From assembly GCA_016906335.1 (NCBI GenBank), contig JADEYG010000001.1, forward strand, positions 1,426,001 through 1,490,000: a stretch of DNA of 64,000 bases. The letters run 5' to 3'. Source of the DNA: Novakomyces olei (Eukaryota). The notes under the pieces were generated by a model. It ran no database searches and was not told the DNA's origin. It saw only the letters and a program-made list of their open reading frames with translations. How positions within the stretch are numbered: position 1 is the stretch's first letter; each line of letters opens with the position of its first letter. The position numbers were made by a program, and so were the translations under genes. Positions 4,747-53,829 of the stretch are shown in pieces.

Positions 4747-5786
4747 GGCACAGATAATGATGAGGCAATTGCTCTTGAGTGTTCACAATGCTGAAAGCTG
4801 AGGCAGAGAGCTGCCATTTTATAATGCAGCGAAAACCAATGATGGAGGGCAGTTTGAAGAGCAGGTGAATTGATCATCGCTTTTCCAGGGAAAGTTGGAG
4901 GTTGCGACAGCTCAAGGAAGACAATCTGAGGTGAGGCTGACGGTATTTTGGTCTTGTTTAGCTAATTTGATAACAATGACCTAAATACAAGAAGTAAATA
5001 TGTTGGGCCGGGTGACAAATTAACGGTGATCTTGGCCAAAATGCAAATCATTGTTAAGAAATGGTGCAAAAAGGAGCAAATGTTTTGTTCATCAACCTCA
5101 AGGAGTCATCTGCATTGCTCATTGTTAGGGGCTTATGCTGGAAACTGTGTAGTTAAATTGCTGTAAAAAAGGCATCGTAGCCATTAATATATCATATAAC
5201 CTTTGATTTTTCCGAGTTTGCACTGCAAATGTGGCTTATTGGAAACATAACTGCAAGCCTACCATAGTAGCAGGTCAAGAAATCAAAGTGTCTTTAATAT
5301 TTGAACGTACATTTATCGTCAAAATACGCCGCTGGCAGGTCGTACTTCGTTACACAAATTAGGCTCACAGATTTAAATAGCTTCAATTTTTTGACGTTTT
5401 ACTCTGTCGTCTATTGCCACGATAAAGTGCAAGTTAAACAATGTATTACCCTAATACTTATTATGGTATGTACGATGCTTAGTTGATAAACATGATAATG
5501 TATTATAGTAAGTGTAAGTAATACGCTTAAAGGTCGAATATGCTTAATTAAAGGTTAGATCTGCTTTTGTCTCACGTAAGCTTTATCTTCCGATAAAACA
5601 GCACTGATAAAATATAGAGTATTTGCCACACATACTATAATGCTCAATAGTCGCCGGTGACTTTAACAAATATTGTATAGTAGTTAACGTGTAACATTAT
5701 AGTACATTGTACGCAGCGTTACACATTATCAGTCTGCTATTAAACTTTAGTTTTTTGTTCCCCGCAAATAATAATACAATGCCGAT

Positions 5787-11573: not shown

Positions 11574-14500
11574 TCAATGCAAACTAAAGTACTCTTGAAA
11601 ATGCTCTTCGTGGGCGAGCATTTCCCTTGCTACCTTCCACATGTGCAAAACCAGTAGCGGAAATCGGCTTGTAAAATAGTCACTGAAACCATCGGGTATC
11701 GAGCCAAAAGCTGCCTGCACATGAGCTGGTAGATCAAGATAATGATGACGTTTATTACGAAGGGCTCGTAATAGGTCAAGCACCTTTTTGCCATCGTATT
11801 TACGGTACTTGCCCAAATTGTCAACCACGCATTTGTCCAGACGACGATGATAATCCGTGCCCAAAATATCTGGTGCAAAAGCCTCCAGTCGCTGAATCAG
11901 CAGAGACGGCGGATCTTTAGTTTCGCCTTCAGACCGGTCAGAGATATCCATCAAAAACGAAAGCTTTTTGGCCGGTGACCAGAAGAACGGGTGCTGCAAA
12001 GCCTCTGTAGCATTAGGCCGTTTTTCCGGCTGCAGGCTGACCATTTGCTCAATCAGATCTGTTGCCAAAACACCTTCTTCCCCGAGTCCCTGGAGATAAG
12101 AAAGATCCTTTTCATCCTTCAAGATATTGCCCTCCCTCAAATACTGGTTGCCATAAGGATGGTCTCCGTTTGTCAGAATATAATAAAACAGACATCCCAT
12201 GGCGAAAATGTCAATTGCCTGTGTAGCCCGGCGGTGTGAGACTACGGACCTAGAAGCGTCAGTAGTAGGACCGCCACCACTACCGCCACTACCATCGTTT
12301 TGGCTGCTACCAGACTCGTTCTTGTTATGGTTATTGTTGATATTTATACTGATGGCGGCCGAACAGCTTTCGTTTAACAGCTCAGGAGCCCTCCAGCCCG
12401 AGGTCCCCGCAGCATGAGCCGTTGTAGCTCCAAAGCTCGACTGATTATGTTCCAACTTCTTACTCAGGCCCAAGTCTGATATCCGTATAGACAGCTCTTC
12501 GCTCTGCAGACTACCCAGCTGCTTTCTCTTCTTGGGAAAGGCCACCAAAACATTGCCCGGCTTGATGTCCCGATGAACCAGTTTTAGCGAGTGAATGTAC
12601 TCTACTCCCGAGGCAATTTGCCTGAGGACTTCTTTCGCGTTCAAGCTGGGTTCTGTATTGCCCAGTAGCTCTGCACGCCGGCCCGGCCTCTCAATCCAAT
12701 CGTACAGAGAGCATATGCACCGTTCCAGAGCCATATAGACGAACCGTGGCGTATTTTGGGTGCAATAGTACCGAACAATATTTGGGTGCTCATCACTCTG
12801 CTGTAACAATTTGACTTCGTGCAGGGCAATCTCTACACATTCTCTCAGCATCCGTTTTACCGCAATTTCTCGGCCCTCCCAGTTGCCCTTGTACACAAAA
12901 GTGCCATTGCTCCCAGTGCCTAGGACCTCGTCTGTGATCAGGAGATTGTTTAGCCAGATATGGCCATCGGCACTGACCCAGCCATAGTCGTCATCTGCCG
13001 CTCGTGGCGTCAGATCCGCTGAAGCGGCTGCGGCCGTCGTTGCAACAGAAGAGGCAGCAGCAGCTTCCATATCGTTATCGTCAGCGACGAGCGCGTCAGT
13101 CGAGTCCGCCGGTCTCGATTTCTTGCCTTTCTTGCCACGGGCACCTCTGCGTTTACGGATCCGTTGCGTCTCTGACACGGGCGACTCCAATAGAGACTCG
13201 GACGGAAGCGGATTTGGTTCCAGCTCTTGCCGAGTTTCAGAGACGGGGGCCCGTTGGCCCGTGCCGACACTGGTCTCTGGTAAAAGTTGTACAGGAGTCT
13301 GCTCTGCTACAGGACTGGCGGAAATTGTGCCAAGTGCCGAGGCCGACTGTGAGGCAATAGGGTCCTGCAGCACTGTCTCCTGAGCAGTTTGAATGTCCTC
13401 CACTTGCGCAGGCGCCAGTGGCACTTGCAGACTGTTAGCGGCACTAGTTTTAGCGCTGCTGCCAGTTCCACTGTCCCCCCTCTTTGCTACTATTGCCGCT
13501 GCTGGATCAAGCGGGTCGGCAAACCCTACACGTAACTCTCTCTGTGGATCGAGCGAGTCGTGTGCCGCACGGAGGGCAAAAGAGGCAGAGTACCGGTAAA
13601 ACAAGGCGAAAACGATAGCAGTAAACATGCCGCCCGCTACAAAGAGCAAGATCCCGTTCTCGTGTGCACGAAAGGGTGAGGAGAAGGAAGAAGAAGAAGA
13701 AGAAGAAGAAGAAGAAGAAGAAGAAGAAGAGGAAGAGCGAGCTTTGTCTGGCACTGTCTCGTTCTCGGCAGAGTCCAGTAGCGGAATATTAAAAGGCAGC
13801 TCGTCGAGTTTATCGACATAGTGCTTGCCCACCAGATCATCAAGGCGGTGGGTAGAGCGCAGTTGCTCAAGGTCCTTTGCATACGAGTACCATTTGGCCA
13901 GCGGCAGGTTGCGCACGTAAGGGAACTGTGTGTCTGACAGGGCATAGAGGCCGCCCTGGGCAGTGAGGCCGACGTAGACGCAGGGCAGGGACTGCTGCTC
14001 AGCGGCACTGTCGCCGACAAGAGACTGCTCTTGCCGGCCCACCGTCTGCGGCTGTACGAGAGCAATCCGTTCAGTGTACCCAGAGGCATTTGCCTCGTAC
14101 ACGTCAAGCACCTGGAGCACTGGCGAAGGCAGCATTCGTGTCCATAGAACCTTTGAGGCATCACTGCCATCGTGCAGGGCCACGATTCCGTTTTGCAACG
14201 TCACAATTACAGGCTCACTGCTGCTGCCACTGCTGCCTTTACTACTACTGCCTTTACTACTACTGCCTTTACTACTAGTGCCACTACTAGTGCCACTACT
14301 AGTGCCACTACTAGTGCCACTACTAGTGCCACTTCCACTACTACTGCTCTCGCGTGCCCGCTCAGCGAGTTCAGTGTCGAGGATACTGCTCGTCCATTCG
14401 GCAAAAGACGTATTCCACAGCCGCGTAAAATCGTCGACTACGGCCACCGTGTACCGCACGAGGCCAATGCCCAGAGCAGAGGGCTGTGCCGGAGCACACT

Positions 14501-15137
14501 GTGGCGGACAGGCAGCGCTGCCGAGGGACTCTGCCGCTGCTGCGACACAGCGGTCAGTGTCGACCTTGAAATTGTGTGTGCCAATCTCCCTCAGCACCTG
14601 TCCGCTCTCGAGATCGATGGAGAGCATAGTCGTGTCCCGTTTGCCGACAAAGACTTTGCTCTCGCCGGCAAAGTAGAAGGGCGAAGAGTGGACGAGCGAC
14701 TTGGCTCCGATGGGCAGACGGTGCAGTCCAGAGTCCACATCAAACACGTACATTTGGCCTTCGCCGACGGGCTCAACGAACCACGCACTCTGTGGCGGAA
14801 GCTGCGAGTCGTTGCGCTGAGCAAAAGTGCTCTGTATCCCAGCGTACCCGTCAAGCGTCCACTTGAGCCGTCCAGAGCTTCTTTCCAGGCAGTACAGATC
14901 GCCGTCCGCAGTGGCCATCAGCACATAGTCCCGTCTCCGCCAGTCGTACCCGCCCAGGGGCACACCGACTTTGCCATTGCCACTGCCAAGGCTCACGTCG
15001 CTTACGGCCGACGGTCCTGTATCCAGCGCCGTACACGCACTGGCCAGGCAGATGGCTGCGCACACGAGCAGCCAACATACTCGCGACAGAAACCGTGCAG
15101 CAGTATACGCGTCTCGAAAGCTCTGCCGTCTGAGCAT
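11574..15137 (-). CDS. IRE1: ER stress sensor kinase/endoribonuclease Ire1
   Basis: Signal peptide, PQQ-like luminal domain, TM helix, kinase (GTGSNGT, VKR, HRDIKPGN, DLG, GTSGWRAPE), KEN RNase (LLRALRNKRHHY). Confidence 0.97.
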   Translation of the reverse strand: MLRRQSFRDAYTAARFLSRVCWLLVCAAICLASACTALDTGPSAVSDVSLGSGNGKVGVPLGGYDWRRRDYVLMATADGDLYCLERSSGRLKWTLDGYAGIQSTFAQRNDSQLPPQSAWFVEPVGEGQMYVFDVDSGLHRLPIGAKSLVHSSPFYFAGESKVFVGKRDTTMLSIDLESGQVLREIGTHNFKVDTDRCVAAAAESLGSAACPPQCAPAQPSALGIGLVRYTVAVVDDFTRLWNTSFAEWTSSILDTELAERARESSSSGSGTSSGTSSGTSSGTSSGTSSKGSSSKGSSSKGSSGSSSEPVIVTLQNGIVALHDGSDASKVLWTRMLPSPVLQVLDVYEANASGYTERIALVQPQTVGRQEQSLVGDSAAEQQSLPCVYVGLTAQGGLYALSDTQFPYVRNLPLAKWYSYAKDLEQLRSTHRLDDLVGKHYVDKLDELPFNIPLLDSAENETVPDKARSSSSSSSSSSSSSSSSSFSSPFRAHENGILLFVAGGMFTAIVFALFYRYSASFALRAAHDSLDPQRELRVGFADPLDPAAAIVAKRGDSGTGSSAKTSAANSLQVPLAPAQVEDIQTAQETVLQDPIASQSASALGTISASPVAEQTPVQLLPETSVGTGQRAPVSETRQELEPNPLPSESLLESPVSETQRIRKRRGARGKKGKKSRPADSTDALVADDNDMEAAAASSVATTAAAASADLTPRAADDDYGWVSADGHIWLNNLLITDEVLGTGSNGTFVYKGNWEGREIAVKRMLRECVEIALHEVKLLQQSDEHPNIVRYYCTQNTPRFVYMALERCICSLYDWIERPGRRAELLGNTEPSLNAKEVLRQIASGVEYIHSLKLVHRDIKPGNVLVAFPKKRKQLGSLQSEELSIRISDLGLSKKLEHNQSSFGATTAHAAGTSGWRAPELLNESCSAAISININNNHNKNESGSSQNDGSGGSGGGPTTDASRSVVSHRRATQAIDIFAMGCLFYYILTNGDHPYGNQYLREGNILKDEKDLSYLQGLGEEGVLATDLIEQMVSLQPEKRPNATEALQHPFFWSPAKKLSFLMDISDRSEGETKDPPSLLIQRLEAFAPDILGTDYHRRLDKCVVDNLGKYRKYDGKKVLDLLRALRNKRHHYLDLPAHVQAAFGSIPDGFSDYFTSRFPLLVLHMWKVAREMLAHEEHFQEYFSLH

Positions 15138-15576
15138 TGGCTCATCTACTCGCAGACTGAGACTGCCGCCACGTGGCAGAACGGGAAAGCCGTAATGGTC
15201 CTCGCAAACTGCTGTGCTCTAGTGTCGCAGGAGTCGAGCTTTTTGGGATTTCGTGAATATGATGGAAATGATGGAATTTGTATTAATATGTATTAATATG
15301 TATTAATATGAATTTGTATAAATTTATATAAATATTGAAATTATTGAACATTTATTGAAATATGCTGGAAAGAATCTATTAATCTTTCCATATACTCAAC
15401 TATTCAAATTCAGATACATCGCTTGTGTATTGACCTTTAACACAAAACTATGTATATAGCGCGAATGAACCTTCAGACCTTTTCGGGACTCCGCTAAAGT
15501 TAAGGTTCGCGGGTAATTTAATTATTCTTCGTCGAGAGCTCTCGCTCGATAAGGAATTTACAAAATATTGCGTTGA

Positions 15577-21604: not shown

Positions 21605-23974
21605 CTACTGATCTACAGGAACAACCTCCTCGGAAATAACTTCCTCCACGTACTCCTCCACGTACTCTTGACGCTCATCTTCCTCCCTATGCCGCTGGTC
21701 ACGCTGAGGTATATTAGCCTCCTTACGTTCCCGTGCCGCCCGCTCAGAGCATTCTTGGCGCCAAGTATTCCACTCAGCCACCAAACGCTGGCGCAACTCA
21801 ACCAGCTCTCGGCTGGCCGTTGACTGCTCAGCCAAGTCTTCCTGGTCAAAGATACGGGAGAATTCACGTAGCCGGCGTCTTACGCTACGCTGCTGTTCTT
21901 TGCTCAAGAGAGTCGTCGGCCGTGGTCGCCAAAGGATCTGCTTGAACCCGTCCACTGACTCCTCGCGCAACAGCGTTCCCTTGAAATCCCACAGCTTATA
22001 CCCGTTCTCGAGACGATGGCGCCATACAGAAGAGCTGGTAAGCACGTACCTGCCGGACGGATCCCATTCCGCATCGGTTATCCCGTAATGGTCCCCTGTT
22101 GCTACCAACTGCAGGTTTGAAGAAGCATCCGCAGTAGCGGACTTGTCACCTTCGTAATCCATATCGTAAAACTCAATGTCGAACGTGGACTGACTGCCAA
22201 TAGTAGCAGCCAAAAGGAACCGGCCTTTGGGCGACCAAAAGAGGGAATTCACCGTCTTCTTATCAAAAGCTTCAATTAACTTGAAATTGCCGCTGAGGCC
22301 CTTGCTCTTGTCCACAGTGTAAAACGAGAGGATAGTCCTTAGCAGTGCAGGGACACCCGTCCCAAAATTAGGATCGTTAGTACTGACCATCGCGAAACGG
22401 TCACCGTGAGGTTCCCAGGCAAATTGCAATACAATATCGTTCTTGGTCTCAATAACTTCCACGGGGATGTTCTTCTCCCGCACCCGGAAAATCTCAAGGT
22501 TACTAAAGGAAATCTTTTTTGTTTTAGCATTCGCCTTTGTATGCCGGTCGACTTTAACGCACATAAACTCGCCCGCGTTCTGCCAGTAAAGTTTACAATC
22601 ACTAACGTTGAACAAGTTTTTAGTGCGCACCGTTTCCTTGCTCGGCACGTTCATTAGTGCCACTCGGGCCGGTGTGTTTTGTAGCTCTGGGGTCCAGTAA
22701 GCCAGCATGCACTCTTCGGTTTTCCTGTTGGGTTCCGTCTGCGCTGGAGCCCATTCAAAGTCCTCGATGCCCTCAATGCGGATCGTTTTCTTATCAAGCA
22801 GACCCATATCAGGCAGCTCGTAAACTGCAATACCGAGTCCACGGTGTAGCCGGGCCACATAGCGATCATCATGGGACCATTTAAACATGGGCCAGACCAT
22901 TTTTGTTGGGCCCATACCAAGACCACTGTTGCCAGTGCCTCGTGCCTGTTCATCGTCAAGCAACCCAGGCGCTGGAGCCGAAGGCGCTGGTCCAAAACTA
23001 CGGAGGATTCGTCCCGTGTGAATATCCCATACAAGGCAGTTTTTGCCCTCATCTTCATCGGTAAAAGGCATGGTGTCCCGGGCCGGGTGGCCGATAGGTG
23101 GGAGGGCAATAGGCTGCTGACTCCAGGTAACAAGGTAGTTTTCGTTGGGTGAGAAAGCAATCAGCCCCACGCCAGGGTGAAGCAGCCGTACAATACGCTT
23201 CCACGAAGGCCCGCCCCAGAGCTGAACACCGGGTCCGTGGCAGGAAGCCAAATAAGTTCCCTTGGGGGACCATTGTATAAAAGTATCGGTCCAGCGCTCC
23301 CGTTCAACAACCGTCTCGGGAACGTCTCCCTTCCTGTTCCACTGTACAGCGGCAATGTCTCCGTGCAATTGAGCCCACTGATCACGACCCTGTCGGTCGG
23401 CCAGCCAGCTGCGCAGATGCTCCTGCTCCACAAACTCTGAGGGCTCTCTCTCCTTGTAAACATCATCAATCTGGGAAAACTTGTCCATGTCTGCTGCCAT
23501 ATTGGCCAGCAGAGTGTGGCGTTTGTCCAAACGTTTTCCATTCACTTCCCTCACTGCCGCCAGTGCCTGTTCAGGGCTGCGGAACTCAACAAACAGGAAT
23601 CCCCTGGACCATTTGGTTCCATCACTGCGGTCTTCCATGGGCATAAAAATGCCATTGTCCTTGATCTTTCCAATGCGGGAGAGCATTGTATTGAACATGT
23701 GCAGCAAAGCATCGCGCTTAGCTTCGGGAATAACAGGTGCTCCGTCGATTATAATCATGCACTCAAAGCCATCCTCGGGCGGGACGTAGAAGCGCTGCTG
23801 AAGGTCGCCAAAATCAATCTCGGAATCGTCTACGACCACATTATCCTCCGACTCTTCGTCCAAATACTGATCAGCACCGTACTCGTCACCCTCACTATCC
23901 ACGTATGCTTCGTCTCTCGCCGTTGCTCCATTGCGGCGGTCTGCACGCGCCTGAGCTTCTTCGTCCGCGGACAT
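21605..23974 (-). CDS. PRT1: Translation initiation factor 3 subunit B
   Basis: Likely start MSADEE at 23974; RRM (GFLFVEF), EHLRSWL.D..GRDQ, WD/eIF2A-like repeats (WSPKGTYL, WDPSGRY), WRPRP. Confidence 0.96.
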   Translation of the reverse strand: MSADEEAQARADRRNGATARDEAYVDSEGDEYGADQYLDEESEDNVVVDDSEIDFGDLQQRFYVPPEDGFECMIIIDGAPVIPEAKRDALLHMFNTMLSRIGKIKDNGIFMPMEDRSDGTKWSRGFLFVEFRSPEQALAAVREVNGKRLDKRHTLLANMAADMDKFSQIDDVYKEREPSEFVEQEHLRSWLADRQGRDQWAQLHGDIAAVQWNRKGDVPETVVERERWTDTFIQWSPKGTYLASCHGPGVQLWGGPSWKRIVRLLHPGVGLIAFSPNENYLVTWSQQPIALPPIGHPARDTMPFTDEDEGKNCLVWDIHTGRILRSFGPAPSAPAPGLLDDEQARGTGNSGLGMGPTKMVWPMFKWSHDDRYVARLHRGLGIAVYELPDMGLLDKKTIRIEGIEDFEWAPAQTEPNRKTEECMLAYWTPELQNTPARVALMNVPSKETVRTKNLFNVSDCKLYWQNAGEFMCVKVDRHTKANAKTKKISFSNLEIFRVREKNIPVEVIETKNDIVLQFAWEPHGDRFAMVSTNDPNFGTGVPALLRTILSFYTVDKSKGLSGNFKLIEAFDKKTVNSLFWSPKGRFLLAATIGSQSTFDIEFYDMDYEGDKSATADASSNLQLVATGDHYGITDAEWDPSGRYVLTSSSVWRHRLENGYKLWDFKGTLLREESVDGFKQILWRPRPTTLLSKEQQRSVRRRLREFSRIFDQEDLAEQSTASRELVELRQRLVAEWNTWRQECSERAARERKEANIPQRDQRHREEDERQEYVEEYVEEVISEEVVPVDQ

Positions 23975-24562
23975 TGTACGCGGCTCTTTGGAAAAGATTT
24001 TTGCGTGCTGAATGGATATTAATCGATAAATGTTTTCACGCACATATATTATGCACATGTAAAGTCGTATATTGTTGTATATTATATATTATTTACTCTA
24101 TATATATTCAAAATATATTTTCAGCATTTCACTAAATATCATTACATCTGACAACAATATGTATGTCTGAAATATAAATCTATTATCCCCTCGTGTTATC
24201 CAATGTTTACTCTATTCCTAAATTAAATACATCCATCGTGCGTGCCTGTTCTTGATTTTTCTTCATTTGATTTCAGTTTGATAATACAAAGTTATATCCA
24301 TGCCTTGAATGAACCCTTCGATCTTTGGGGATCCAGCTGAAGCTTTTAGGAGTTTCTCGTTCAAATATTAAACTTTGAAACAATTTCCAATCTATACTTT
24401 CAACACGAATTTATATAATATTTATTGTATATCCTCTAACGTATGTACTCTACAGTATATAGGCTACTGCGTAAAACATACTCTACAACTCTTTACTATA
24501 TCTCTCCGTATATATAATACAAATATATATACGCCTTGTGCAGCTTATGAAAGACGGCAAAC

Positions 24563-33993: not shown

Positions 33994-34478
33994 TGACCGC
34001 GCGCTTCCACGCTGATTCGTCCTACGCCGACTTTTGTTTACGTGAATGTTTACATGTTTGCCAGAGATTTACATAGTATAGTGGACAACGTGTGTGAGCG
34101 GCTATGTAATGTACCCGTCAATTTCGATGCTGTACGCACACGGGGCCCGTGTGCGTAAAGTTTGTATACTTGTTCGTCACATCAAGTAGACGTTGACACG
34201 GGCCCCGTGCGTATTACATTGATTTCGTTTAATTTAACGCGAAACACAACCTGCGAGCAGGGTCAAGTCCAGCGACCCGATGCTCATACTAAGCGGTTCA
34301 TACTGAGCGGCTTATTGAGCGGCTTTTTGAGCAGCTTATAGTGGGAGCGCATTTGCCTGCTGGCAAATCGTGTAAAGTGGCCACTGCTTTTGGCACTATA
34401 AACTCTATGTTAATGGACCAAGCCCAGCAAGTCTGTGGGATGAGCACGACTAGGTCTCGTTAAAAAGGGCAGAGCAGA

Positions 34479-37400
34479 ATGGCTAATAGCGCACCGGAAT
34501 CACTGCCACCGCAGACCAAGACAAAGCCGGCGTCGAGTCAGCGCGTGCTGCACCAGTCGACCATCAGCAGTTTTTTCACTAGTTCCTCGCTGCCGGCAGG
34601 AAAAGTCTGTGAGACTGAGTCTGACGAGGGCTTTTCAGCGATTAAAAGACGGCGCCTGTCCCCGTCACCGACACAGCGACTGACCGGGTTCGCTTTGGCC
34701 GCTGGCGACAGTGTCTCTGCCAAAATTGCCGGTGCCAAAAGCAATGGTACTGAGGCTAAAAACGGGGAGGAAAAAAGTGCAGCCGCCAGAGTGCTGAATG
34801 AAAAGAATACTGGACCCGATAGCCTCAGCGCCGGAAAGAGACAGCGGTTGCATGAAGCGTTTGTCTCCCGGCTCGGTCCTCGCAGTGAGCGGGTCACAAA
34901 CCAGGCGGACGCGGCTAGTGCTGTAGAGAAAAGGCCGTTAAACGAGCCGGCCTCGTCAAAACTTACCCCCCTAGAACGGCAGTTTGTAGATATCAAAAAG
35001 GCCAATTTGGACACAGTTTTGGCTGTTGAAGTAGGCTACAAGTTTAGGTTCTTTGGGGAGGACGCTAAAACTGCCAGCCGGGTGCTGCACATTGCCAATT
35101 TCTTTGATCATAATTTTTATACTGCCAGTATCCCAACGCATCGACTGCACGTGCATGTAAAGCGTCTCGTAAACGCGGGACACAAGGTCGGCATAGTTCG
35201 CCAGCTTGAGTCTGCTGCGCTTAAAGCCGCCGGGGATAATAAAAGCGCACCTTTTACACGGTCACTCGCCAATGTTTACACTCGGGCAACTTACTTGGAG
35301 GATATGGATGACAATACTAATACTAATCAAACAGACCCGGGCAATTGTGCGCCTCGAACTGGCTTCATAATGTGCATTGCCGAGTCGGCCATCACTGATG
35401 CCAGTGGAGGGCCAGATTTCTGTACACGGTACGGTGTACTGGCAGTTCAGCCGGCAACTGGACACGTTGTTTATGACGCGTTTAATGACAGCTCAGCGCG
35501 TAACGAGCTCGAGACACGTATAATGCACCTGCAGCCCTGTGAACTCGTACTCTGTGGACCAGTGGGCAGTGCTACGAGCAAGCTGGCCTCTTTTTTAACT
35601 CGTAGTGGCCCCAGCGTTATGGGCGAGCGTGTACGCGTGGACGCTGATACGAAGCCTGTACTTTTGCCTTTTGCTCTATCTGCGATAGAATTGTTTTACA
35701 ATGAAAGGGGTGTTGATGTAGAAGCTGCCATGAGTGTCATTCAGAAACTGCCTCCGCTAGTCGTTGTTTGCCTGCAGTCAATGATTACAAGGATGAAAGT
35801 ATTTGGCTTGGAAGCCGTGTTCCAACAGGTCTCCCGGTTTCGGCCCTTTACAGGCCGTGAGCGGATGCTTTTAGACGGGCATTCAATAGCGAATTTAGAG
35901 ATATTCACCAGCTCAGAGGGCACAGAAGTTGGGTCGCTTTTCTGGGTGCTTGATCATACATCTACACGGTTTGGCCGGCGCAAATTACGCAGCTGGCTGA
36001 GCCAGCCGCTGCTTGATTTTGCTCAATTACAAGAACGACTGGCCCTCGTACAGGAGCTGGCAACTTCCACCAACTTGAAAGTCAACAGGTTCCGTACCTT
36101 ATTAGCCAAACTGCCAGACCTGGCACTGGCTCTCAGCAATATTCAGTACGGACGCTGTGAGCCGGCTAAACTGCTACAATGCTTGCAGGCCTTTTCCATG
36201 ATTAGTGGACAGTTTTCTCTGCAGGAAAGCGGCAAGCATAATTTTGTAGCCTCCTTTTTGAACGATTTAACACAGCTACTGCCCCGTATAGGTCCAAGTG
36301 TGCACGGGTATCTGGACGCCTTTCATCATCAGTCAGCCGCAGTTAACGATAAAGTGGGCATGTTTGCCCATGATGATACTTGCGATCATGTGACTGCGCA
36401 AAAGTGTGGCATCATTGCCGTTGAAGCTGAACTGGCTCAGCATTTAGTGGAAATCAGACGGCAATTAAAGAAACCTCATTTGGTCTACGTCGCAGTAGCC
36501 GGCACAGAGTACCTGGTCGAGGTACGTAACACAGAAGTAGCTAAAATTGTGCCCAACCATTGGCAAAAGATCAACGGAACTCGTGCCGTTTCCCGGTTCT
36601 ATACGCCTCAGGTAATACAATTACTGCGTGAGCGGGAAGAGAGGAAAGAGCGACTGGCTATCGAGGCAGAAGCAGCTTACCGCCGGCTTTTACAGCAAAT
36701 CTCCCAGCATTACACGGAGCTGGCGGACGTGGTTGATCAACTAGCAGAGCTGGACGTTTTACTTTCTCTTGCGACTGTAAGCAAACGGCCTCACTACGTC
36801 GTGCCTAGAGTGCTAGAAAATCATACTGGAATCGATATTGTCGAGGGCCGGCACCCGATTGTGGAACAGACAATGCTCGCGTCAGGCGCGTACGTTCCTA
36901 ATGATACCCATCTGTCAACAGGCACACGGGTACTCGTTCTAACTGGTCCTAATATGGGCGGCAAGAGTTCTTATGCTCGTCAGATTGCTCTTATATGTAT
37001 AATGGCACAAGTGGGCTCCTTTGTACCTGCCCAACAGGCAAGTCTGGGCCTTGTCGATGCAGTGCTCACGCGTATGGGAGCAAAAGACAACATGCTTGCT
37101 GGCCACAGCACTTTTATGGTGGAAATGCAGGAGGCAAGTGCTATTATGAGGGCTGCAACATCTCGCAGCCTTGTCATTATGGACGAACTCGGCCGGGGTA
37201 CTTCTACCCACGATGGCCAGGCAATTGCCTCTGCTATATTAGATTATTTTGTACAAAGCATTAAATCTTTGACGGTAATGGTCACGCACTACAGTTCTTG
37301 CTTGGGCGCATTTGCCCGTCGATATCCAGGCACAGTGGAGAACGGGCACATGGCTTTTGTTCAGGGCGACAATGTCCAGGTATGCATGCTGTATAAGTTG

Positions 37401-37622
37401 GCTCGTGGAGTAGCCCATCGTAGTTTTGGACTCAATGTTGCTCGCCTAGCGGGTCTTCCGGCCAGTGTCGTCGATCTGGCCTCAACCAAAGCCCGGCAGT
37501 TTGAACGACGAGAGATGCACAGGCAAAGGCAACGTCAGTGCCTGCTGATGCGGAAAATATTATCAGCAGACACTGTCACGCTTGCCGATATTGAAGCATG
37601 TGACGCCGCTGTAAATGAGTGA
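34479..37622 (+). CDS. MSH3: DNA mismatch repair protein Msh3
   Basis: N-terminal PIP box QSTISSFF; EVGYKFRFFGEDA (Msh3-type); TGPNMGGKSS; MDELGRGTSTHDG; SFGLNVARLAG. Confidence 0.95.
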   Translation: MANSAPESLPPQTKTKPASSQRVLHQSTISSFFTSSSLPAGKVCETESDEGFSAIKRRRLSPSPTQRLTGFALAAGDSVSAKIAGAKSNGTEAKNGEEKSAAARVLNEKNTGPDSLSAGKRQRLHEAFVSRLGPRSERVTNQADAASAVEKRPLNEPASSKLTPLERQFVDIKKANLDTVLAVEVGYKFRFFGEDAKTASRVLHIANFFDHNFYTASIPTHRLHVHVKRLVNAGHKVGIVRQLESAALKAAGDNKSAPFTRSLANVYTRATYLEDMDDNTNTNQTDPGNCAPRTGFIMCIAESAITDASGGPDFCTRYGVLAVQPATGHVVYDAFNDSSARNELETRIMHLQPCELVLCGPVGSATSKLASFLTRSGPSVMGERVRVDADTKPVLLPFALSAIELFYNERGVDVEAAMSVIQKLPPLVVVCLQSMITRMKVFGLEAVFQQVSRFRPFTGRERMLLDGHSIANLEIFTSSEGTEVGSLFWVLDHTSTRFGRRKLRSWLSQPLLDFAQLQERLALVQELATSTNLKVNRFRTLLAKLPDLALALSNIQYGRCEPAKLLQCLQAFSMISGQFSLQESGKHNFVASFLNDLTQLLPRIGPSVHGYLDAFHHQSAAVNDKVGMFAHDDTCDHVTAQKCGIIAVEAELAQHLVEIRRQLKKPHLVYVAVAGTEYLVEVRNTEVAKIVPNHWQKINGTRAVSRFYTPQVIQLLREREERKERLAIEAEAAYRRLLQQISQHYTELADVVDQLAELDVLLSLATVSKRPHYVVPRVLENHTGIDIVEGRHPIVEQTMLASGAYVPNDTHLSTGTRVLVLTGPNMGGKSSYARQIALICIMAQVGSFVPAQQASLGLVDAVLTRMGAKDNMLAGHSTFMVEMQEASAIMRAATSRSLVIMDELGRGTSTHDGQAIASAILDYFVQSIKSLTVMVTHYSSCLGAFARRYPGTVENGHMAFVQGDNVQVCMLYKLARGVAHRSFGLNVARLAGLPASVVDLASTKARQFERREMHRQRQRQCLLMRKILSADTVTLADIEACDAAVNE

Positions 37623-42655: not shown

Positions 42656-44105
42656 CTACACATAGCGAAGGCACGCCCGCTCAAGATCCTTCGCGTTTAA
42701 TCCGCTGAGCGAAATGCACTCGTTCAGGGTTTGCGCTGTAGGCTTCTCATGAGCTTCGTCCAGCGGCTGTCGTTTCCGCAACAACTGTGCTTCCCAAAAC
42801 AGTCCTATCACAGAGGCTGCTTCCTTGTGGGTCAAAAGGCCCACGTGTATCAGGGGCAGGGATACATCTTTTTCTTTGCGCTCGAAATTAACAAACGCCG
42901 CCCTGCGCTGAGTGAGTTTAGGGTACGCTGCCCTATAAGCGGCTGGTAGTAAAGATTCGCAGGTCTCGTCGTATACAGCCTTTGCACTCATTTGAGAGAA
43001 ACCTAAAGCGTAATCCAGAGGCTTAAAGCCCAACTCCTTTGTCACCCGAGCACTTAGAACGGTAGAGTGTGGCTGCTGCCGGGTCCCATTGACGAGGGAC
43101 GTGATCAATGATCCCAGTTTAAACTGTGCCGGGTGAATACAGTGGCCATCGCGGTCGAGGTATTCCGTCTTGATGGCCAAGTAATCGAGCCCGTCAAGGG
43201 TAAAGAGTGTAGGCACTTTACTGGCTCCCAATTCGTGCAGCACAGCCTCAACGCCCCGGAAGGGATCTGTGTCCAATCCAGCCAGCTGCGCTACTTTTGA
43301 AAGTGCAGTCCCCGGCTGGAGAGTTTGAGCACCAAACTTGTAAGGCTCAACGGTTATAGTAGCGTCAAATATCTCTCGGTTGGCGGTTCGCCAGCTGTTT
43401 AATATTTGGCTGCACAGAACCGGTTGGTCCCATAAACTTGTCTCTGCATCAAGGGCATAAGCAGAGCTGCCGTTAGTAAGAAGACGGGCGTGTGGGAATC
43501 CAAGGATAGCAGTTCCCAGCTGCGAGGCAAACATTTGTGCTTGTGACAATAAATGTGATTTGCCGGCTCCGGGTTTGCCGTAGAGCAAAATCTGCTTTGA
43601 TCCCTCCTGGTGTTGCAATTCCTTTAGCAACCGCAGGGACACGTGCCGGAGACATGTGAAATTGCGGCCCAGCAAATCTTGCACAGGTTTAGGGTTAATT
43701 AGCCCAAACTCGGAGACGGCAGTGGCAACAGCTTGGGGAACTTCAAACACGAGTCCGGAATAATCTTCTTTGCCTTCGTCAGACAAGGATTTCACGTCAA
43801 GCAACGGAAGCGACACGGACAGTGGAGTAAGGGTTTTCAAGTCTATGATGGACGAAGTGCGGACGGCATCCGTCTCAGCGTACGCTTTTTCTTCCAAGCT
43901 GCGCTTGTCGCGCGGACCAAGAACTTCAAACTTGTTAGTCTCCGTAATTGCTTGATCTATCTCTGTTGGTATCAAAGGTCTTACGTTTTCGGTGTTTGGC
44001 CGCCAATGCCGGCGTCGTTGTTAGACCGCGACGGAAAACGGAGGAGGCCAGAGTCTGCCGCCACTGCGGTCCTGCCGCGTGCCTTACGCAAGCGTAGCAC
44101 TTCAT
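42656..44105 (-). CDS. RSM23: Mitochondrial small ribosomal subunit protein mS29 (DAP3 family)
   Basis: Presequence exon starting at 44105; P-loop G..GAGKS.LL.Q; L.NGSS.Y; WDQP; LFTLDG; SGLN..L at the C-terminus. Confidence 0.82.
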
Positions 44106-45836: not shown

Positions 45837-48011
45837 TCAAAATATGGAAGATGCCATCTTGTGGGCCTTCTTTTGTAAATGCTTTGCAAAATTGGTTTTG
45901 CCTTCAGAGCCCGATTTAGGTTGCTGCTCCTGTACAGATGACCTCGCTTTAATCTGTTCATTAACCGCGCTCGCCGTTTCCAAAACACTTTTAGTCGCTG
46001 CCCGAAGAACCTCGTACTCCTTGATATCGGGTGACGTATACTCTTTAATACGAGCCAGTATCAAAGGGTACTTGAGGAACCGCTGAACCGGTTTTATAAG
46101 CAAGCTCCCTAAATCCCAAGCATTCGACCGGCGCATAATTTCTGCGTTTTGGCAGTCCAACCATGAACTGACGGCGGGTTTCTGCCGCGCCTTTTGTAGC
46201 CGTGCCATACTGTACTCCTGCTGAAGATAGTATTCCGAGTAAACGGGTATTAGCGATGCCATCTTGTCACAAAACGCCTCTCCAACTGTCGTCTGATCCT
46301 GTTTAAAGTCCATTAAATTTTCCGAGTAAACTTGAATAGCGTGGGACCTCAGTGTTTCGGCAAACACTGTGGCCACTTCTAGCACGTCCCTAACCCGCCC
46401 GAATATAGCATCATAGTCCTGTGCTGATAGGGGACAATTATCTGTCCATTTCTCCCCATAGCAATCAACGACGAGCCTCATATCGCGAATAAACGTTTCC
46501 TCTGTTTCAATGAGCTCATATATATTGTTTCGTTTCCTTTTCCATCGCCGTAGATCCTGATGCCGCCATTCTTCGCCGTCAAGGGCCGCTTCATCGATTG
46601 ATGAGGAGACAGCTGAAGCACAACTTTCAATTGACAAGGAACGTGACGATCGCAGTGACGAAATGTTGGGCAATGAGTTCCTTTTCCTATGGCCATGCCT
46701 ACCTTCAGTCCCCTGTGAGCCATCAATTTGGCGGGCACTGTCAAGCGCCACGCGAGGCAACGGCTTTTCCAGGAGCAAACCCTCTTTGGGCTTCCGTTCA
46801 GCCGTGTCAGCAGTCTGTAGCATTAGTGGATCGTCAGTGTACTTGGGTGGCTCAGTAAAAGGCCTCCCAGTCTCAGATATCCTGGGCTTTTCGACTCGCT
46901 CAGTTGCGCTTTGGTCGAGCCGTTTAGGCTGGTGTTTTGAGCGTGAAGGCGATGACGGATTTGCTGAAACTTTAGACGCTTTATCACCTCTGCTCTTTTT
47001 CTTGGGCGTTATCGGTGGAGGTGCTATAGCCTGATGCAAGTGGATCTGTGGCACTGAACCATCTGTCCTAGACGAAGAAGGTGGCCGTGTTTGTAGTGGG
47101 CCCGATGGACGGGTCGTTGGCACGGGTAGCCGCTCGTCCAGCTGAGCCTCAAACTTTCTAATCATGGCCGCCATTGAAGAAAGAGAGCTTGACACTGACG
47201 CATTATCTGACGTAGTGCTGTCGTGCGTGTTTGACCGCTTTTCCAACCGCGGCCTGACGGGCTGTTTTAAGGGTTCGTTTCGGCCGGATCCCTGTCGATA
47301 AGACTCTGTCCGACTACTCTCGTGCCGACTTGACAACGAGCTGGTTAAATCGCTTTTCGCTGTGTAATCGTACCCGCTGCTCCGATCGCCCAGATCCTCC
47401 GTCTCGTGCCGATCTTCCCTCTCGTGGCGGCTCGAGCCAGACACTAATCGTGAATCAGGTTTACGTGTGCCCATCGTCCGAGGAATGTGCGCGTCTTTAC
47501 GCGGAGGCGTTGGAGGCAGTGGCTCGTCCCACGGCCCTTTGGGCCCATTTAAAAGGAGCGGTATAGACGCGTAATTTGCGTCGGCAGTACCCTCGCCAGA
47601 CACTTGGTTCCCCGTGTTTTGCTGCTCGTACTTTGAGCTGTCGCCAAGAGTCGGGATCCGCGACATTGAGGGCACTCTGTGTGCCGATTTGAAGGGCACT
47701 GGAGGCGGCAGTACGGTCTCATTGGCCGCAGTGTGCGGAACGAGACGGCCGCGGCCCAGATCGGTGCTCTGTACGTTCTTCATACTCGTGAGCGGTCTTC
47801 TCACGACGAGCGGAGAGCGACAGCGGCTTCGGCAGCGATTGCCGTTGCTGTTCCGAGTGCCGCCGCTGCTGCTGCTTCCACCGCTCTCTGAGCCTGTGAC
47901 GTAATCACCGGCAGTATATGCAATCTGATCTGACGCTTTACAAGCACCGCCACAGCGGCAATGGCGGTTGTAGGCACATGTCGATTCGCCTTTTTGGCTC
48001 AGAGCAAGCAT
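45837..48011 (-). CDS. Dbl-homology RhoGEF (Gef1/dynamin-binding-protein-like) with a long disordered N-terminus
   Basis: KR..IYELIETEETFIRDM; AWDLGSLLIKPVQRFLKYPL; proline-rich PxxP segments. Confidence 0.85.
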   Translation of the reverse strand: MLALSQKGESTCAYNRHCRCGGACKASDQIAYTAGDYVTGSESGGSSSSGGTRNSNGNRCRSRCRSPLVVRRPLTSMKNVQSTDLGRGRLVPHTAANETVLPPPVPFKSAHRVPSMSRIPTLGDSSKYEQQNTGNQVSGEGTADANYASIPLLLNGPKGPWDEPLPPTPPRKDAHIPRTMGTRKPDSRLVSGSSRHEREDRHETEDLGDRSSGYDYTAKSDLTSSLSSRHESSRTESYRQGSGRNEPLKQPVRPRLEKRSNTHDSTTSDNASVSSSLSSMAAMIRKFEAQLDERLPVPTTRPSGPLQTRPPSSSRTDGSVPQIHLHQAIAPPPITPKKKSRGDKASKVSANPSSPSRSKHQPKRLDQSATERVEKPRISETGRPFTEPPKYTDDPLMLQTADTAERKPKEGLLLEKPLPRVALDSARQIDGSQGTEGRHGHRKRNSLPNISSLRSSRSLSIESCASAVSSSIDEAALDGEEWRHQDLRRWKRKRNNIYELIETEETFIRDMRLVVDCYGEKWTDNCPLSAQDYDAIFGRVRDVLEVATVFAETLRSHAIQVYSENLMDFKQDQTTVGEAFCDKMASLIPVYSEYYLQQEYSMARLQKARQKPAVSSWLDCQNAEIMRRSNAWDLGSLLIKPVQRFLKYPLILARIKEYTSPDIKEYEVLRAATKSVLETASAVNEQIKARSSVQEQQPKSGSEGKTNFAKHLQKKAHKMASSIF

Positions 48012-48159
48012 TATCCACTATATAATATATTTAATATAAGGCGGTAGCGCGATACCCAAACTGTGTATTGCGCACCAAAATACTGGAATATATGAAGAAT
48101 ATTGGGGATAATAAGTCTGAATGTGAATATTGATAAAATAGAGTATGAATAATAATAAT

Positions 48160-49891: not shown

Positions 49892-52800
49892 ATGTTTGCA
49901 CGCGCTTATTTGGAGGCAAGGACGAATTTGTATACATTGGGCGAGTATTTACAGCACGTTTTGCCATTACGCGTTTACTCGCTGCTTGTACAATATGGAG
50001 ATCCGCCAGCCTATCGCTGCTTGTTGCAGCAAATATTGGTGGCCATAGATTCACCTTTACCTGAGAATCTGCCAAAGGATACTGCACCAGGACACAATGC
50101 AGTTCCTCGTATACATGAGGTATGAGCTATTGAAGTAACTGCTTTCTGTGCAAGACAAATGATGTAAAAAGAATTCTGCAATGCCTATGGGTTTGGCACA
50201 ATGTGCACATAACCACTGCGGACCCCAATTCACTACATTCGATCTGATGTCGTCGCCAGTAGACAACAGTATAAATGTGTTTTATACTTATTTATTATTT
50301 TTAGTTTAGTTTGTCTTTTTCGTCTTGCTAACAATAAGGTCGTGCAAAGCATCATCTATCGTCTGGCACGTGATAAACGCGGCAGTACGAATGTTCTGAC
50401 CTTGGGTTATGAACCCGCATCAGACCGTGATTTATTGCAACAGCAGCAAGGTCTTTCCAGTTTTGGTCTGACTTGTCGGCATCCTAATAGCAATGTTACA
50501 CGGTTACTGGGTGATGAATGGGCGCTTCTTTTGAATAGGTATAAATACATGAATTCTGTAAACGCTGATCGTCTTACATGAACAGAACTGGCGAAGACTG
50601 TTTTATTCATTTATTGATGTCTCATTCATTGTTTTTACTCTGCGACAATGATAATGCTATTCAAATTGCAGGTACGCCGCTGCACTTTTGGAGCAATCGA
50701 AAACGCCCTGCTGAGACTGAGTTGCTAAACCCGCAAAGTCGTCGTCTTCATCAAAGCAGTACAAGATTGTTTCGTTCGTCAAATGAAATTACGTTTGTCC
50801 GCCAGAAACATTTTTATTCCCGGCCATTTGTTTCGAGTAGTGGAAATGTGCTTTTTGGTCTACGCCCTAACCGTACGTTTAAATTTGATCGAGAATTTTA
50901 TTTCTACACCATTATCTTATTCTTTTATTTTCTGTTTCCGCGTTTCTCGTTTGTCATATTCCTGCTTTTTCTAACAAAACGCATTAGACTGTCTCCAGCG
51001 CTTTGCGAATGCGAGCGAGAAGGATATCAGTACAGTATTGGCATATATATTCCCGGTCCAGTTTAAGCTGCATAACGTTTTTACAAGCCGTACGGACAAA
51101 CGATTAACAAATTTTCAATTTCAGGACTATACTTGTCGCGATGAGGAACTGCAAAAATTTATAGACCTTAATGGGCCATTACCCCGCGCATGCCCAAAAC
51201 GTCTGCTGCCAGGATCGACTGCTTGGCGGTTGGTGCACCAGCTTATTTGCAATCAGAAAAAAATTAATTATAAAACATTGATTGACCGGTTTTGCAGGTC
51301 CAAGGTGACTGGCTCCGTCCCAGTTGCTAACACCCGACGCATAAAATTCGATCGATACGCTATTGAAGACCAGAAAGTCACACTATTCTTCCAGTCTGTA
51401 TTGATAAAATTGATACCTCTACAATTTTTTGGTACTCGCCAAAATCAAAGACGATTTCTAGCTCATGCAAGCAAATTTGTGTTACTACGGAGGAATGAAA
51501 ATTTTAGTCTTCACAGTGTAACTCAGGGCATCAAGGTGAGTTTTGTGTCGGTTGGCTCGAGTGTCGCATTTCCACATTACCTGGAAGTGCCTGTTGTTTT
51601 CTATACCATTGTTTTCAATAATATTGAGTTTTTTTATTTATTGCCTTCTATAATCGCTACTTTCTGTTATTACTGCTTTAATTGTTTGTATGCGGAGTTT
51701 TTCAAGTTTTCAAAACAAGTTTTTCTCCATTATTTGTATTAACCAGTTATAGTTAAAAGGCATTCCCTGGCTGGCACCAGAAAACTTTAGCGGCTGCTTG
51801 TCAGACTGGATAAAAAGAGAGCAGTTGTTTCTCGAATTCTCGTATTTCGTTTATGATTCAATTATCCTGCAGTTACTGTCCAACAATTTTTATGTCACTG
51901 AATCAAATGCTCATAAAAACAGACTTCTGTTCTTCCGCCAGGATGACTGGAGAAAGCTGGCTCGGCCGATTATTTCCGACATAAAGGACGAAAGCTTCCA
52001 GGAACTAGACCCTGTGGTTGGACAGATCATGGAGCCGACACGTAAACTGGCGTATGCGAGTGCCAGACTGCTACCCAAGGCAGAGGGTGCGCGTTTGATT
52101 ATGAACTTGCAGCGTCGGCAGCTGGTTAGCCGTTCGAGTCGGATCTATCTGCCCGCTGCCAATACTACTCTGGCTCCGCTCTATAATGTCTTGAAATTCG
52201 AAAAAGGCCGGCATTTAGATGGCGTAGGCCCGCCCATATTCACAATCCCGGACAGGCACTTTGTGCGCACGCGTCTGGCTGCTTTGAAGGATCGGTATTT
52301 CCGTGGAGGCAAGGGCCCTAAATTGTACATGGTGAAGACGGATATTAGCAACTGTTTTGATTCTGTTGATCGGAACTCTGTCATGGACATTGCGTCGTCT
52401 ATTATTCGTGAGCACGAGTACACTTTGATCAAGTATACGCGTTTAACTTTCACCAAGACCGATATGTACCGCTACTACTCCACTCTTGCCTCTGCCTCCG
52501 ATGACTATGTGACCTTTGACGAAGTGGCCAGATCTCTACTCTGCAGTTACTTCCACACGATCTTGATTGACCAAGTGGCTTATCCAACAAAGACGGGCGG
52601 CAAGCTGCTGGAATTGCTACAGGAACATTTAAAGGACCACCTTGTAAAAATTGGTGGTAGAACATTTATACAAACCCACGGAATTCCACAGGGATCCAAG
52701 CTCTCTGTGCTTTTGTGCAACATGTTTCTGGAGAGGATGGAGCGCGAGCATCTCGCTTTTCTTGCACGGGAGGATACAGTACTGTTTAGACTTGTCGATG

Positions 52801-53829
52801 ATGGGCTTCTTGTCACGCTGGACAAGAGTGTTGCTGACAGGTACGTGCAAGTAATGCACGAAAAGCTGCATGGCTACGGGTGCAGTGTTAATCAGAGCAA
52901 AACCCTGCTTGTGAATTTTGATGCCAGAGTCAATGGGACAAGGCTGAATAGGCTCGAGGGCTCACGGTATATTATGTACTGTGGCAGTCTCATTAATATC
53001 GATAATCTCGAAGTTGTGCGCGCGGATCCTCAAGAACGGCAGATGGTTGCTGATAGTCTGTCTGTGGAATTCAATAAACGGCCAGGTGCCTTCCTGCGAA
53101 CAAAGTTGCTTAGGTATGTACCTGAGATTATAATTAAGATGGCAATAAGAATTGAATTAACTATTAAATAAAGTGACAATAACAATTAAAATGCCAACTA
53201 TAACTACAATAACAATAAGATCAAAAAAGCAGTTAAAATCAAAATAATAATTATCATCAAAATAACAATAATTACAATAGAAAGCTAATCGTTCAATATA
53301 GGATACTTCGATTGTACCTTCGCCCTCTTTATTATGGGACCTCATTCACTTTGAACAAGACCATGATAAAAAATCTGTACCAAGCATTTCTTTCAATTTC
53401 CCATCGGTATTCTCAGTCCGTTCTGAGTCTTGGACGGAAATGCTACCCGTCTTTACAATTTGCAATTGGTATTTTCATCATTTTGACCTTAACCTTTCTA
53501 ACTTTTTAGACCTTACTGAAGATCTCGCCGAGACTGCGTACTCACTGGCGTTTGCCAGACGCAGCCAGAACAATGGAGTAATTAATTTTTCTCGTCCAAC
53601 AATCAAATGGTAATAACTATGACGAATAAATATAGAATGAACGAATTTAGCTTACACTTTCAGGCTTTTGACTCGAGCCTTTTTGTCTTCGCTCTCCCGG
53701 CAAAGACGCCATTTGTCTGATATTTGTGATCACTTGGAATTGAAATACGCCCGATCGATACGGCCTAAAGAACGGTGTAAATTACAGGCAATCATTGGTG
53801 AAACTAAGAGTGATGCAAGACAGCCTTGA
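49892..53829 (+). CDS. TERT: Telomerase reverse transcriptase, 8 exons, about 1018 aa
   Basis: Exons 49892-50119, 50339-50538, 50586-50872, 50988-51535, 51753-53113, 53302-53468, 53510-53609, 53664-53829 join in frame; TEN (NVLTLGY, IQIAG.P), T motif FYVTE...RLLFFR..W, RLLPK, KTDI.NCFD, GIPQGS.LS, RLVDD, YCG. Confidence 0.96.
50154..50251 (+). ncRNA. Candidate intronic box C/D snoRNA guiding 5.8S rRNA Gm75-equivalent methylation (functional analogue of SNORD96)
   Basis: GACA stem (50154-57), C box ATGATGT (50159-65), guide GAATTCTGCAAT (50171-82), D'-like CCTA (50184-87), D box CTGA (50244-47), TGTC stem (50248-51); lies inside TERT intron 1. Confidence 0.68.

Follow-up and report, generated by a model that had tools for sequence, protein, structure and literature searches.

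A probable Afu-191-family box C/D snoRNA in the first intron of a fungal TERT gene

The box C/D small nucleolar RNA (snoRNA) Afu-191 of Aspergillus fumigatus was recovered as 11 cDNA clones, is 92 nucleotides (nt) long with a 90-nt Northern signal, and is listed as intergenic (Afu1g10270/Afu1g10280); its putative targets, Gm75 of 5.8S ribosomal RNA (rRNA) and Am32 of U2 small nuclear RNA (snRNA), were predicted and not mapped (available part of PMC2377427). The CD29 snoRNA of Neurospora crassa is intron-encoded, is described as a homologue of human SCARNA9, and directs U2-Am31 by its D guide, as verified by primer extension, and 5.8S-Am42 by its D' guide (available part of PMC2780460). The present analysis concerns a 64,000-nt stretch of DNA from Novakomyces olei (contig JADEYG010000001.1, positions 1,426,001 to 1,490,000), referred to below as the window, in which positions 50154-50251 (+ strand) very probably hold a box C/D snoRNA of the Afu-191 family, located in sense orientation within intron 1 of the telomerase gene TERT.

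Methylation equivalent to 5.8S Gm75 is present in human and Arabidopsis and absent in budding and fission yeast. The candidate snoRNA of the window suggests that this methylation is ancestral and was lost more than once. In human, Gm75 is 92% methylated (PMC4605285, available part) and was assigned to SNORD96A, in an intron of GNB2L1 (RACK1) (PMC7812721, available part), in agreement with the SNORD96 host named by a first-pass annotation of the window. The Arabidopsis equivalent, Gm79, has the guide snoR39BY, and no yeast counterpart is listed for it (PMC8583080). The same annotation held that this G is also methylated in Schizosaccharomyces pombe; the available part of PMC4605285 contradicts this, giving Psi76 as the only modification of S. 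pombe 5.8S rRNA, without 2'-O-methylation.

Anatomy and family of the intronic RNA

The intron and the elements of the candidate RNA within it are listed below; the covariance models R1 and R2 and the open reading frame (ORF) P0255 are described further on.

50120-50338, + strand: TERT intron 1, 219 nt, phase 0, with GT at 50120 (donor GTATGA) and AG at 50337-50338, read directly
50154-50251, + strand: candidate box C/D snoRNA of the Afu-191 family, about 98 nt (Rfam RF01499, models R1 and R2, P0255 read-through)
50154-50157, + strand: 5' arm of the terminal stem, GACA, pairing with 50248-50251 and present in the centroid fold
50159-50165, + strand: C box AUGAUGU (DNA ATGATGT), with one A between it and GACA
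50171-50182, + strand: D' guide GAATTCTGCAAT, 12 nt, exact complement of 5.8S AUUGCAGAAUUC
50184-50187, + strand: degenerate D' box CCUA (DNA CCTA), aligned with CNGA of relatives
50190-50214, + strand: internal hairpin in the D' to C' interval, predicted by folding
50217-50222, + strand: C' box UGCGGA, aligned with AUGCGGA, AUGUGGA or AUGUCGA of relatives
50226-50233, + strand: 8-nt 5.8S complement CAATTCAC, read directly
50231-50243, + strand: D guide CACUACAUUCGAU, U2-type of the Afu-191 family with two substitutions, U50238 and C50240
50244-50247, + strand: D box CUGA (DNA CTGA), read directly
50248-50251, + strand: 3' arm of the terminal stem, UGUC (DNA TGTC), present in the centroid fold
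50328-50332, + strand: CTAAC branch site inside TERT intron 1

The intron borders, stem, boxes, guide and branch site reported by the first-pass annotation were all recovered at their positions by direct reading, and its description of TERT intron 1 as carrying a sense-strand box C/D snoRNA, whose D' guide is in register for the G equivalent to Gm75, is borne out by the anatomy, the Rfam match and the homology of the host. A C box of the RUGAUGA type and a CUGA D box are closed by a terminal stem of 4 base pairs (bp), GACA/UGUC, which is the generic box C/D arrangement. An internal C'/D' pair is present as well, with a C' box like that of relatives and a degenerate D' box, CCUA. The D' guide forms 12 perfect pairs with positions 71-82 of the Rfam 5.8S consensus, which may differ from the species' own 5.8S. 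Within this duplex C50179, the fifth nucleotide upstream of CCTA, faces the G of AUUG (model position 74), which corresponds to human G75; on the D side, the fifth nucleotide upstream of the box is U50239.

One snoRNA lies on the sense strand of one spliceosomal intron, in a gene model built from homology and reading-frame logic. In mammals the optimum for intronic snoRNAs is 70-80 nt from the 3' splice site. Here the distances are 34 nt to the 5' splice site, 87 nt to the 3' splice site and about 80 nt to the branch A, and the two splice-site distances are typical of intronic snoRNA placement; intronic snoRNAs of N. crassa lie 41-60 nt from the 5' splice site (available part of PMC2780460).

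A second 5.8S complement had been noted at 50226-50233. The 8-nt match of CAATTCAC to 5.8S GUGAAUUG is real, but four of its eight target bases are already taken by the main duplex, it could contribute only 4 bp (GUGA) beside it, and the region is not conserved among relatives. Accessory pairing has been reported for some yeast snoRNAs, and the CAATTCAC pairing might be of this kind or might be due to chance. Both the Afu-191 family and the U2-type D guide that overlaps this stretch had been missed.

A search of 351 nt (50050-50400) with Rfam gave RF01499 (Afu_191) as the best match in the intron, at 50154-50249 with 25.5 bits and E 0.038. The alignment spans the whole model (1-93), and the guide and the final 15 nt, which comprise the D guide and D box, are identical or nearly so. 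At Rfam gathering scores the whole window gave no match. The RF01499 model is narrow: among 20 loci scanned, one of the 13 family loci described below reaches 60 bits (L112, 64.6 bits). Of the two kinds of Rfam model named in the first-pass annotation, fungal C/D and SNORD96, the fungal one thus provided the best match, although below its gathering score, and the SNORD96 model was absent among the six Rfam matches with E up to 10 in the same 351 nt.

Relatives were collected from metagenomes with a search pattern consisting of the window's C box, 12-mer and D box, which matched at least 119 loci, and these were sorted by inspection and regular expressions. Among the 119 matches listed, 19 were antisense to ribosomal DNA (rDNA), 13 were family members (12 distinct sequences) and 87 were other loci, mostly bacterial-looking coding sequence with a few possible snoRNAs of other eukaryotes. 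The 12 distinct relatives have a common layout of C box, guide, D' box, hairpin, C' box, D guide and D box, in which the 5.8S guide is conserved by construction because the search pattern demanded it. Their D' box is CNGA in 11 and CUUA in one (L111), their C' box is AUGYSGA-like, and the hairpin between D' and C' carries compensatory changes in 6 of 9 pairs. The window RNA fits this layout, with its hairpin at 50190-50214 and C' box at 50217-50222. A full-length covariance model of the 12 relatives, R1, gave 35.8 bits at 50152-50255; it was dropped as an argument, since its training set had been chosen with a pattern derived from the window and control loci scored nearly as high as the window. 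A further C/D-like RNA with the same 5.8S guide was observed at L030:91-193 on an AT-rich contig (26% G+C), with 35.6 bits by R1, and may be an analogous snoRNA of a non-fungal eukaryote.

The signal was compared with chance by several routes. The 12-mer alone did no better than chance: with up to one mismatch it had one match in the window, against a shuffle mean of 0.67 and a match in 44 of 100 shuffles. The composite pattern (ATGATG, 5-7 nt, the 12-mer, 55-65 nt, CTGA) matched once in the window and in none of 100 shuffles. Two tests largely independent of the search pattern were made on the 3' half. The family D-guide and D-box 15-mer CUACACUUGAUCUGA, which was taken from relatives and represents a feature not used by the first-pass annotation, had a single window match with up to two mismatches, at 50233-50247 (shuffle mean 0.08, match in 8 of 100). 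Model R2 was built from seven metagenome relatives and covers the region after the 5.8S guide only; its best match over both strands of the window (128 kb) was 50218-50250, with a rough E of 0.023. The R2 match, the CUACACUUGAUCUGA match and the 5.8S guide fall in the same candidate of about 100 nt, in the correct order and spacing.

TERT as host and the apparent persistence of the placement

The host gene was modelled from the following parts.

49892-50119, + strand: TERT exon 1, opening with ATG and 76 codons long, N-terminal portion of the TEN region, ending GAG|GTATGA in phase 0
50339-50538, + strand: TERT exon 2 (TEN region), matched by tblastn to Pneumocystis jirovecii TERT residues 77-145
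50539-50585, + strand: TERT intron, 47 nt
50975-53113, + strand: TERT RNA-binding and reverse-transcriptase exons (Pfam Telomerase_RBD, RVT_1)
53114-53301, + strand: TERT intron, 188 nt, with GTATGT and CTAAT...AG signals and a repetitive, very AT-rich sequence

Pfam recognised Telomerase_RBD (1.7e-12 and 3.2e-19) and RVT_1 (6.2e-15) in the TERT ORFs, and the best named relatives of the downstream ORFs are fungal TERTs with 37-38% identity. Exon 2 also aligns with the same region of about 20 other TERTs. Its frame has a stop upstream at 50210-50212 and lacks an ATG, which means that translation must begin in an exon that precedes the snoRNA. Exon 1 ends in the phase that exon 2 takes up, and its 76 residues equal the 76 that precede the exon-2 equivalent in Pneumocystis TERT. 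It contains a motif resembling residues 53-71 of a basidiomycete TERT N-terminus (pairwise E 7e-4), and its pairwise comparison with Pneumocystis TERT on its own gave E 1.2. The first-pass annotation had remarked on the length of intron 1; the 219 nt were confirmed, but such a length does not stand alone within the gene, as the TERT intron at 53114-53301 reaches 188 nt. No snoRNA boxes were seen by eye in that second long intron.

A comparison of exon 1 with 1.84 billion representatives gave three matches, of which the best was P0255 (E 9e-6), a 121-residue ORF from one 2465-nt Logan contig; the other two, TPR/CHAT proteins, were rejected as spurious. The first 77 residues of P0255 align with exon 1 to its end (AVPVSE versus AVPRIHE) at 43-44% identity. 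Past exon 1 the frame continues without a stop as VGSIAPAR-DDE-C-EFCN-TY...HMRI...YTTFDLM. In the back-translation of this part, the C box lies within GAYGAYGAR, the 12-nt guide is compatible with GARTTYTGYAAY, a D' box of the form CNUA (CCUA in the window) lies in ACNTAY, and ATGMGNAT corresponds to the C' box; TAYACNACNTTYGAYYTNATG comprises the D guide, with the C-to-U change seen in the window, and after it the D box. Back-translation fully determines 71 positions, and 50 of them agree with the window. The P0255 'protein' thus appears to be TERT exon 1 read through the intron and snoRNA, that is, a spurious ORF, and gene callers can take read-through ORFs of this type for proteins. That these peptides fell in this order and spacing by chance is not credible, and their retention argues for selection on the snoRNA, including its D guide. 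Because TERT exon 1 reads into the same snoRNA motifs in P0255, the arrangement seems to be conserved in a Taphrinomycotina-like lineage, as represented by one diverged relative. A final protein search for more relatives of exon 1 and P0255 returned only P0255.

Among the sampled fungi outside this lineage the host differs, and the TERT placement is not conserved in distant fungi. A tblastn search with 120 TERT proteins and the window's TERT ORFs found TERT in none of the 119 matches listed, where the sequence covered beyond the 3' end of the snoRNA, on its strand, ran to 876-7439 nt at the 13 family loci; the sole match obtained involved a fused protein, outside its TERT portion, and was rejected. 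Conservation across species, which the first-pass annotation proposed to check, apparently held for the motifs after TERT exon 1 in P0255, by back-translation, and not for the loci of the pattern search.

At nine metagenome loci (ten with the duplicate L070) the snoRNA instead lies tail-to-tail with an aldo-keto reductase gene (PF00248) on the opposite strand. These copies are:

L017:7899-7994
L105:2537-2642
L112:1115-1216
L014, L023, L057, L095, L111 and L113

Aldo-keto reductases made up 9 of the 10 ORFs tested beside family copies, and the pairing is a conserved microsynteny. Since the two are convergent, these copies do not lie in a sense intron of the reductase gene. No reductase or adenosylhomocysteinase neighbour of the kind found at the metagenome copies was present in the window. 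The reductase-linked site is probably the Afu1g10270/Afu1g10280 site of A. fumigatus; in the other papers found to name them, these two genes figure only as borders of the nrps1 cluster. The TERT protein of strain Af293 (XP_749051.2) is encoded on a contig of at most 2,058,334 nt, which from chromosome sizes we take to be chromosome 7 and not chromosome 1, and Afu-191 is at an Afu1g locus.

These apparently intergenic copies bear on the possibility that the window snoRNA is real but is transcribed separately, from a promoter within exon 1 or before it to a terminator in the AT-rich stretch that follows the snoRNA, independently of TERT splicing. Afu-191 is listed as intergenic, the nine reductase-linked copies stand outside any sense intron of the reductase gene, and the 87 nt after the window snoRNA have 28% G+C and contain GUAG and UCUUG motifs, which we take to resemble Nrd1/Nab3 sites. 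An own transcript is nevertheless improbable, as the RNA reads in the sense direction, with a good donor before it and a CTAAC/AG acceptor after it at typical intronic spacing, and its position directly after exon 1 recurs in P0255.

Several observations weigh against an Afu-191-type snoRNA in a TERT intron. The RF01499 score of 25.5 bits is well under the gathering score of 60, and 100 pattern loci not used for training reached 35.6 bits by R1, close to the window's 35.8. In the D' box the usual G is missing, and the C box has a terminal U where RUGAUGA has A. Fold stability was no better than that of shuffles (z +0.68); this is usual for C/D snoRNAs and gives no support. Exon 1 alone was not recognised by Pfam, its best match among PDB sequences was to retroviral capsids (E 0.63), and a profile of 22 TERT N-termini ranked it fourth of 1205 ORFs (E 3.6). 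The snoRNA of P0255 is known by back-translation from protein only, and S. pombe, the nearest relative whose modifications have been studied, is unmethylated at the target G.

A decaying or chance look-alike without a functional small nucleolar ribonucleoprotein (snoRNP) would account for the CCUA D' box, the terminal U of the C box, the altered D guide, the sub-threshold Rfam score and the narrow R1 margin. It is extremely unlikely, given that two independent halves co-locate in correct order and spacing and that the motifs recur after TERT exon 1 in P0255, where the exon 1 protein has only 43-44% identity. The same box variants are also seen among relatives; the last position of the C box varies there too, with C in 2 of 12.

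Predicted targets, release from the intron and gene neighbourhood

The preferred reading, an intron-borne snoRNA of the Afu-191 family, implies that the RNA is most likely freed from the intron once this has been spliced out, and that it would guide methylation of the 5.8S G75 equivalent. The TERT pre-mRNA would be transcribed with the snoRNA in intron 1, and Snu13, Nop56, Nop58 and Nop1/fibrillarin would assemble on the C/D kink-turn that the GACA/UGUC stem closes. Splicing and debranching would follow, after which exonucleases would trim the intron to a snoRNP with an RNA of about 98 nt. Its D' guide would pair with 5.8S AUUGCAGAAUUC, with the G75 equivalent in the fifth pair counted from the D' box, where it would be 2'-O-methylated.

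The stretch that leads up to the D box is regarded as a U2-type guide because the Afu-191 family was assigned a U2 target there. Its target was taken as the complement of the consensus guide of the U2-type relatives, which may differ from the species' own U2. Against this target, U50238 gives a G-U wobble at the sixth position and C50240 a C-A mismatch at the fourth, on either side of the target-facing U50239. Mismatches beside the target nucleotide would be expected to block methylation. The window D guide appears to be derived from the U2 snRNA guide of the family, and its activity is doubtful because the wobble and the mismatch flank the target position. Other targets were sought by two weak tests: a 13-14-nt complement of the D guide had no other good match in the window, and the complement with up to one mismatch had no match in 705 kb of metagenome loci, including partial rDNAs.

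In 5 of the 12 relatives (L014, L095, L111, L113 and L057) the D guide is unrelated and the 5.8S guide is kept, so that the D guide changes readily in evolution. The Afu-191 family has exchanged or lost its U2 guide more than once.

U2 snRNA might instead be the important target, in the manner of the small Cajal body-specific RNAs (compare CD29 and SCARNA9), with the 5.8S guide secondary. The U2 guide is common to CD29 and its filamentous-fungal cognates, and U2-Am31 was verified by primer extension (available part of PMC2780460); the window D guide still agrees with 9 of 11 family positions, and its peptide imprint TTFDLM is kept in P0255. The substitutions around the target-facing nucleotide and the unrelated D guides of five relatives make this unlikely.

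Hosts of snoRNAs are usually well-expressed and often translation-linked genes, and TERT is classically a low-output gene. The first-pass annotation knew of no TERT gene in this role and proposed a regulatory device by which telomerase expression or splicing is coupled to ribosome biogenesis. No report of TERT as a snoRNA host was found in the parts of the literature searched, and the placement is apparently kept in one diverged relative, as such a device would have it. Simple inheritance, however, explains the persistence of an intronic snoRNA, and the same snoRNA occupies non-TERT sites in the other sampled fungi; coupling is accordingly very unlikely. In its most explicit form, the TERT pre-mRNA would be the conserved sole source of the 5.8S (perhaps also U2) guide in a Taphrinomycotina-like lineage, snoRNP assembly or competition between 3'-end formation and splicing would set the amount of productive TERT mRNA, and telomerase dosage would be linked to how much modification of ribosomes and spliceosomes growth requires. 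This chain is likewise given very little probability. If the placement did affect TERT expression, it would constitute a new regulatory link.

Other genes of the window were identified by Pfam.

1858-4782, - strand: DUF7029/DUF7223 protein
6569-7687, + strand: peroxisomal-type ABC transporter
11574-15218, - strand: IRE1-like kinase/RNase
21605-24088, - strand: eIF3b
34464-37622, + strand: MutS homologue
42656-44020, - strand: mitochondrial ribosomal DAP3
45837-48017, - strand: RhoGEF

Several of these neighbours are long uninterrupted ORFs, and introns are therefore not dense everywhere in the window. The eIF3b protein is 75% identical to a Logan protein, and among named organisms its best matches are in Saitoella (58%), Protomyces (54%), Pneumocystis (53-54%), Neolecta (52%) and Schizosaccharomyces (51-52%); these relatives point to an early-diverging ascomycete of the Taphrinomycotina kind.

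Comparison with described snoRNAs

Human SNORD96A, in the GNB2L1 (RACK1) intron, and Arabidopsis snoR39BY guide the same 5.8S G as is predicted for the window snoRNA. They have other hosts, no SNORD96 model was among the Rfam matches with E up to 10, and they are functional analogues and not demonstrable homologues. CD29 resembles the window snoRNA in being intron-encoded with a 5.8S guide at D', and CD29 and SCARNA9 (mgU2-19/30) have a D guide for the A30-32 position of U2 snRNA, to which the U2-type D guide of the window is comparable. The two fungal RNAs differ in that the D' guide of CD29 targets 5.8S Am42, whereas that of the window is predicted to target the Gm75 equivalent, and in that the U2-type guide of the window is imperfect.

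The metagenomic orthologues (such as L112, L105, L017 and L023) have the C box, 5.8S guide and D'/hairpin/C' layout of the window RNA, and the same U2-type D guide occurs in 6 or 7 of the 12. They adjoin an aldo-keto reductase gene and have no TERT nearby, whereas the window has no such reductase gene. Afu-191 is also close to the window RNA: both are box C/D snoRNAs, with a length of about 92 nt in Afu-191; they agree in the 13-nt D' guide AGAAUUCUGCAAU and its register, resemble each other in the C' box, and carry a U2-type D guide adjoining the D box. Afu-191, however, is listed as intergenic and has the D' box CUGA, whereas the window copy lies in TERT intron 1, has CCUA as D' box and differs in its D guide by two substitutions. 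Taken alone, the window snoRNA is ordinary, its family and mechanism being already known, and it extends the Afu-191/CD29 family to an early-diverging ascomycete lineage; what is unusual, and new, is its host gene, TERT.

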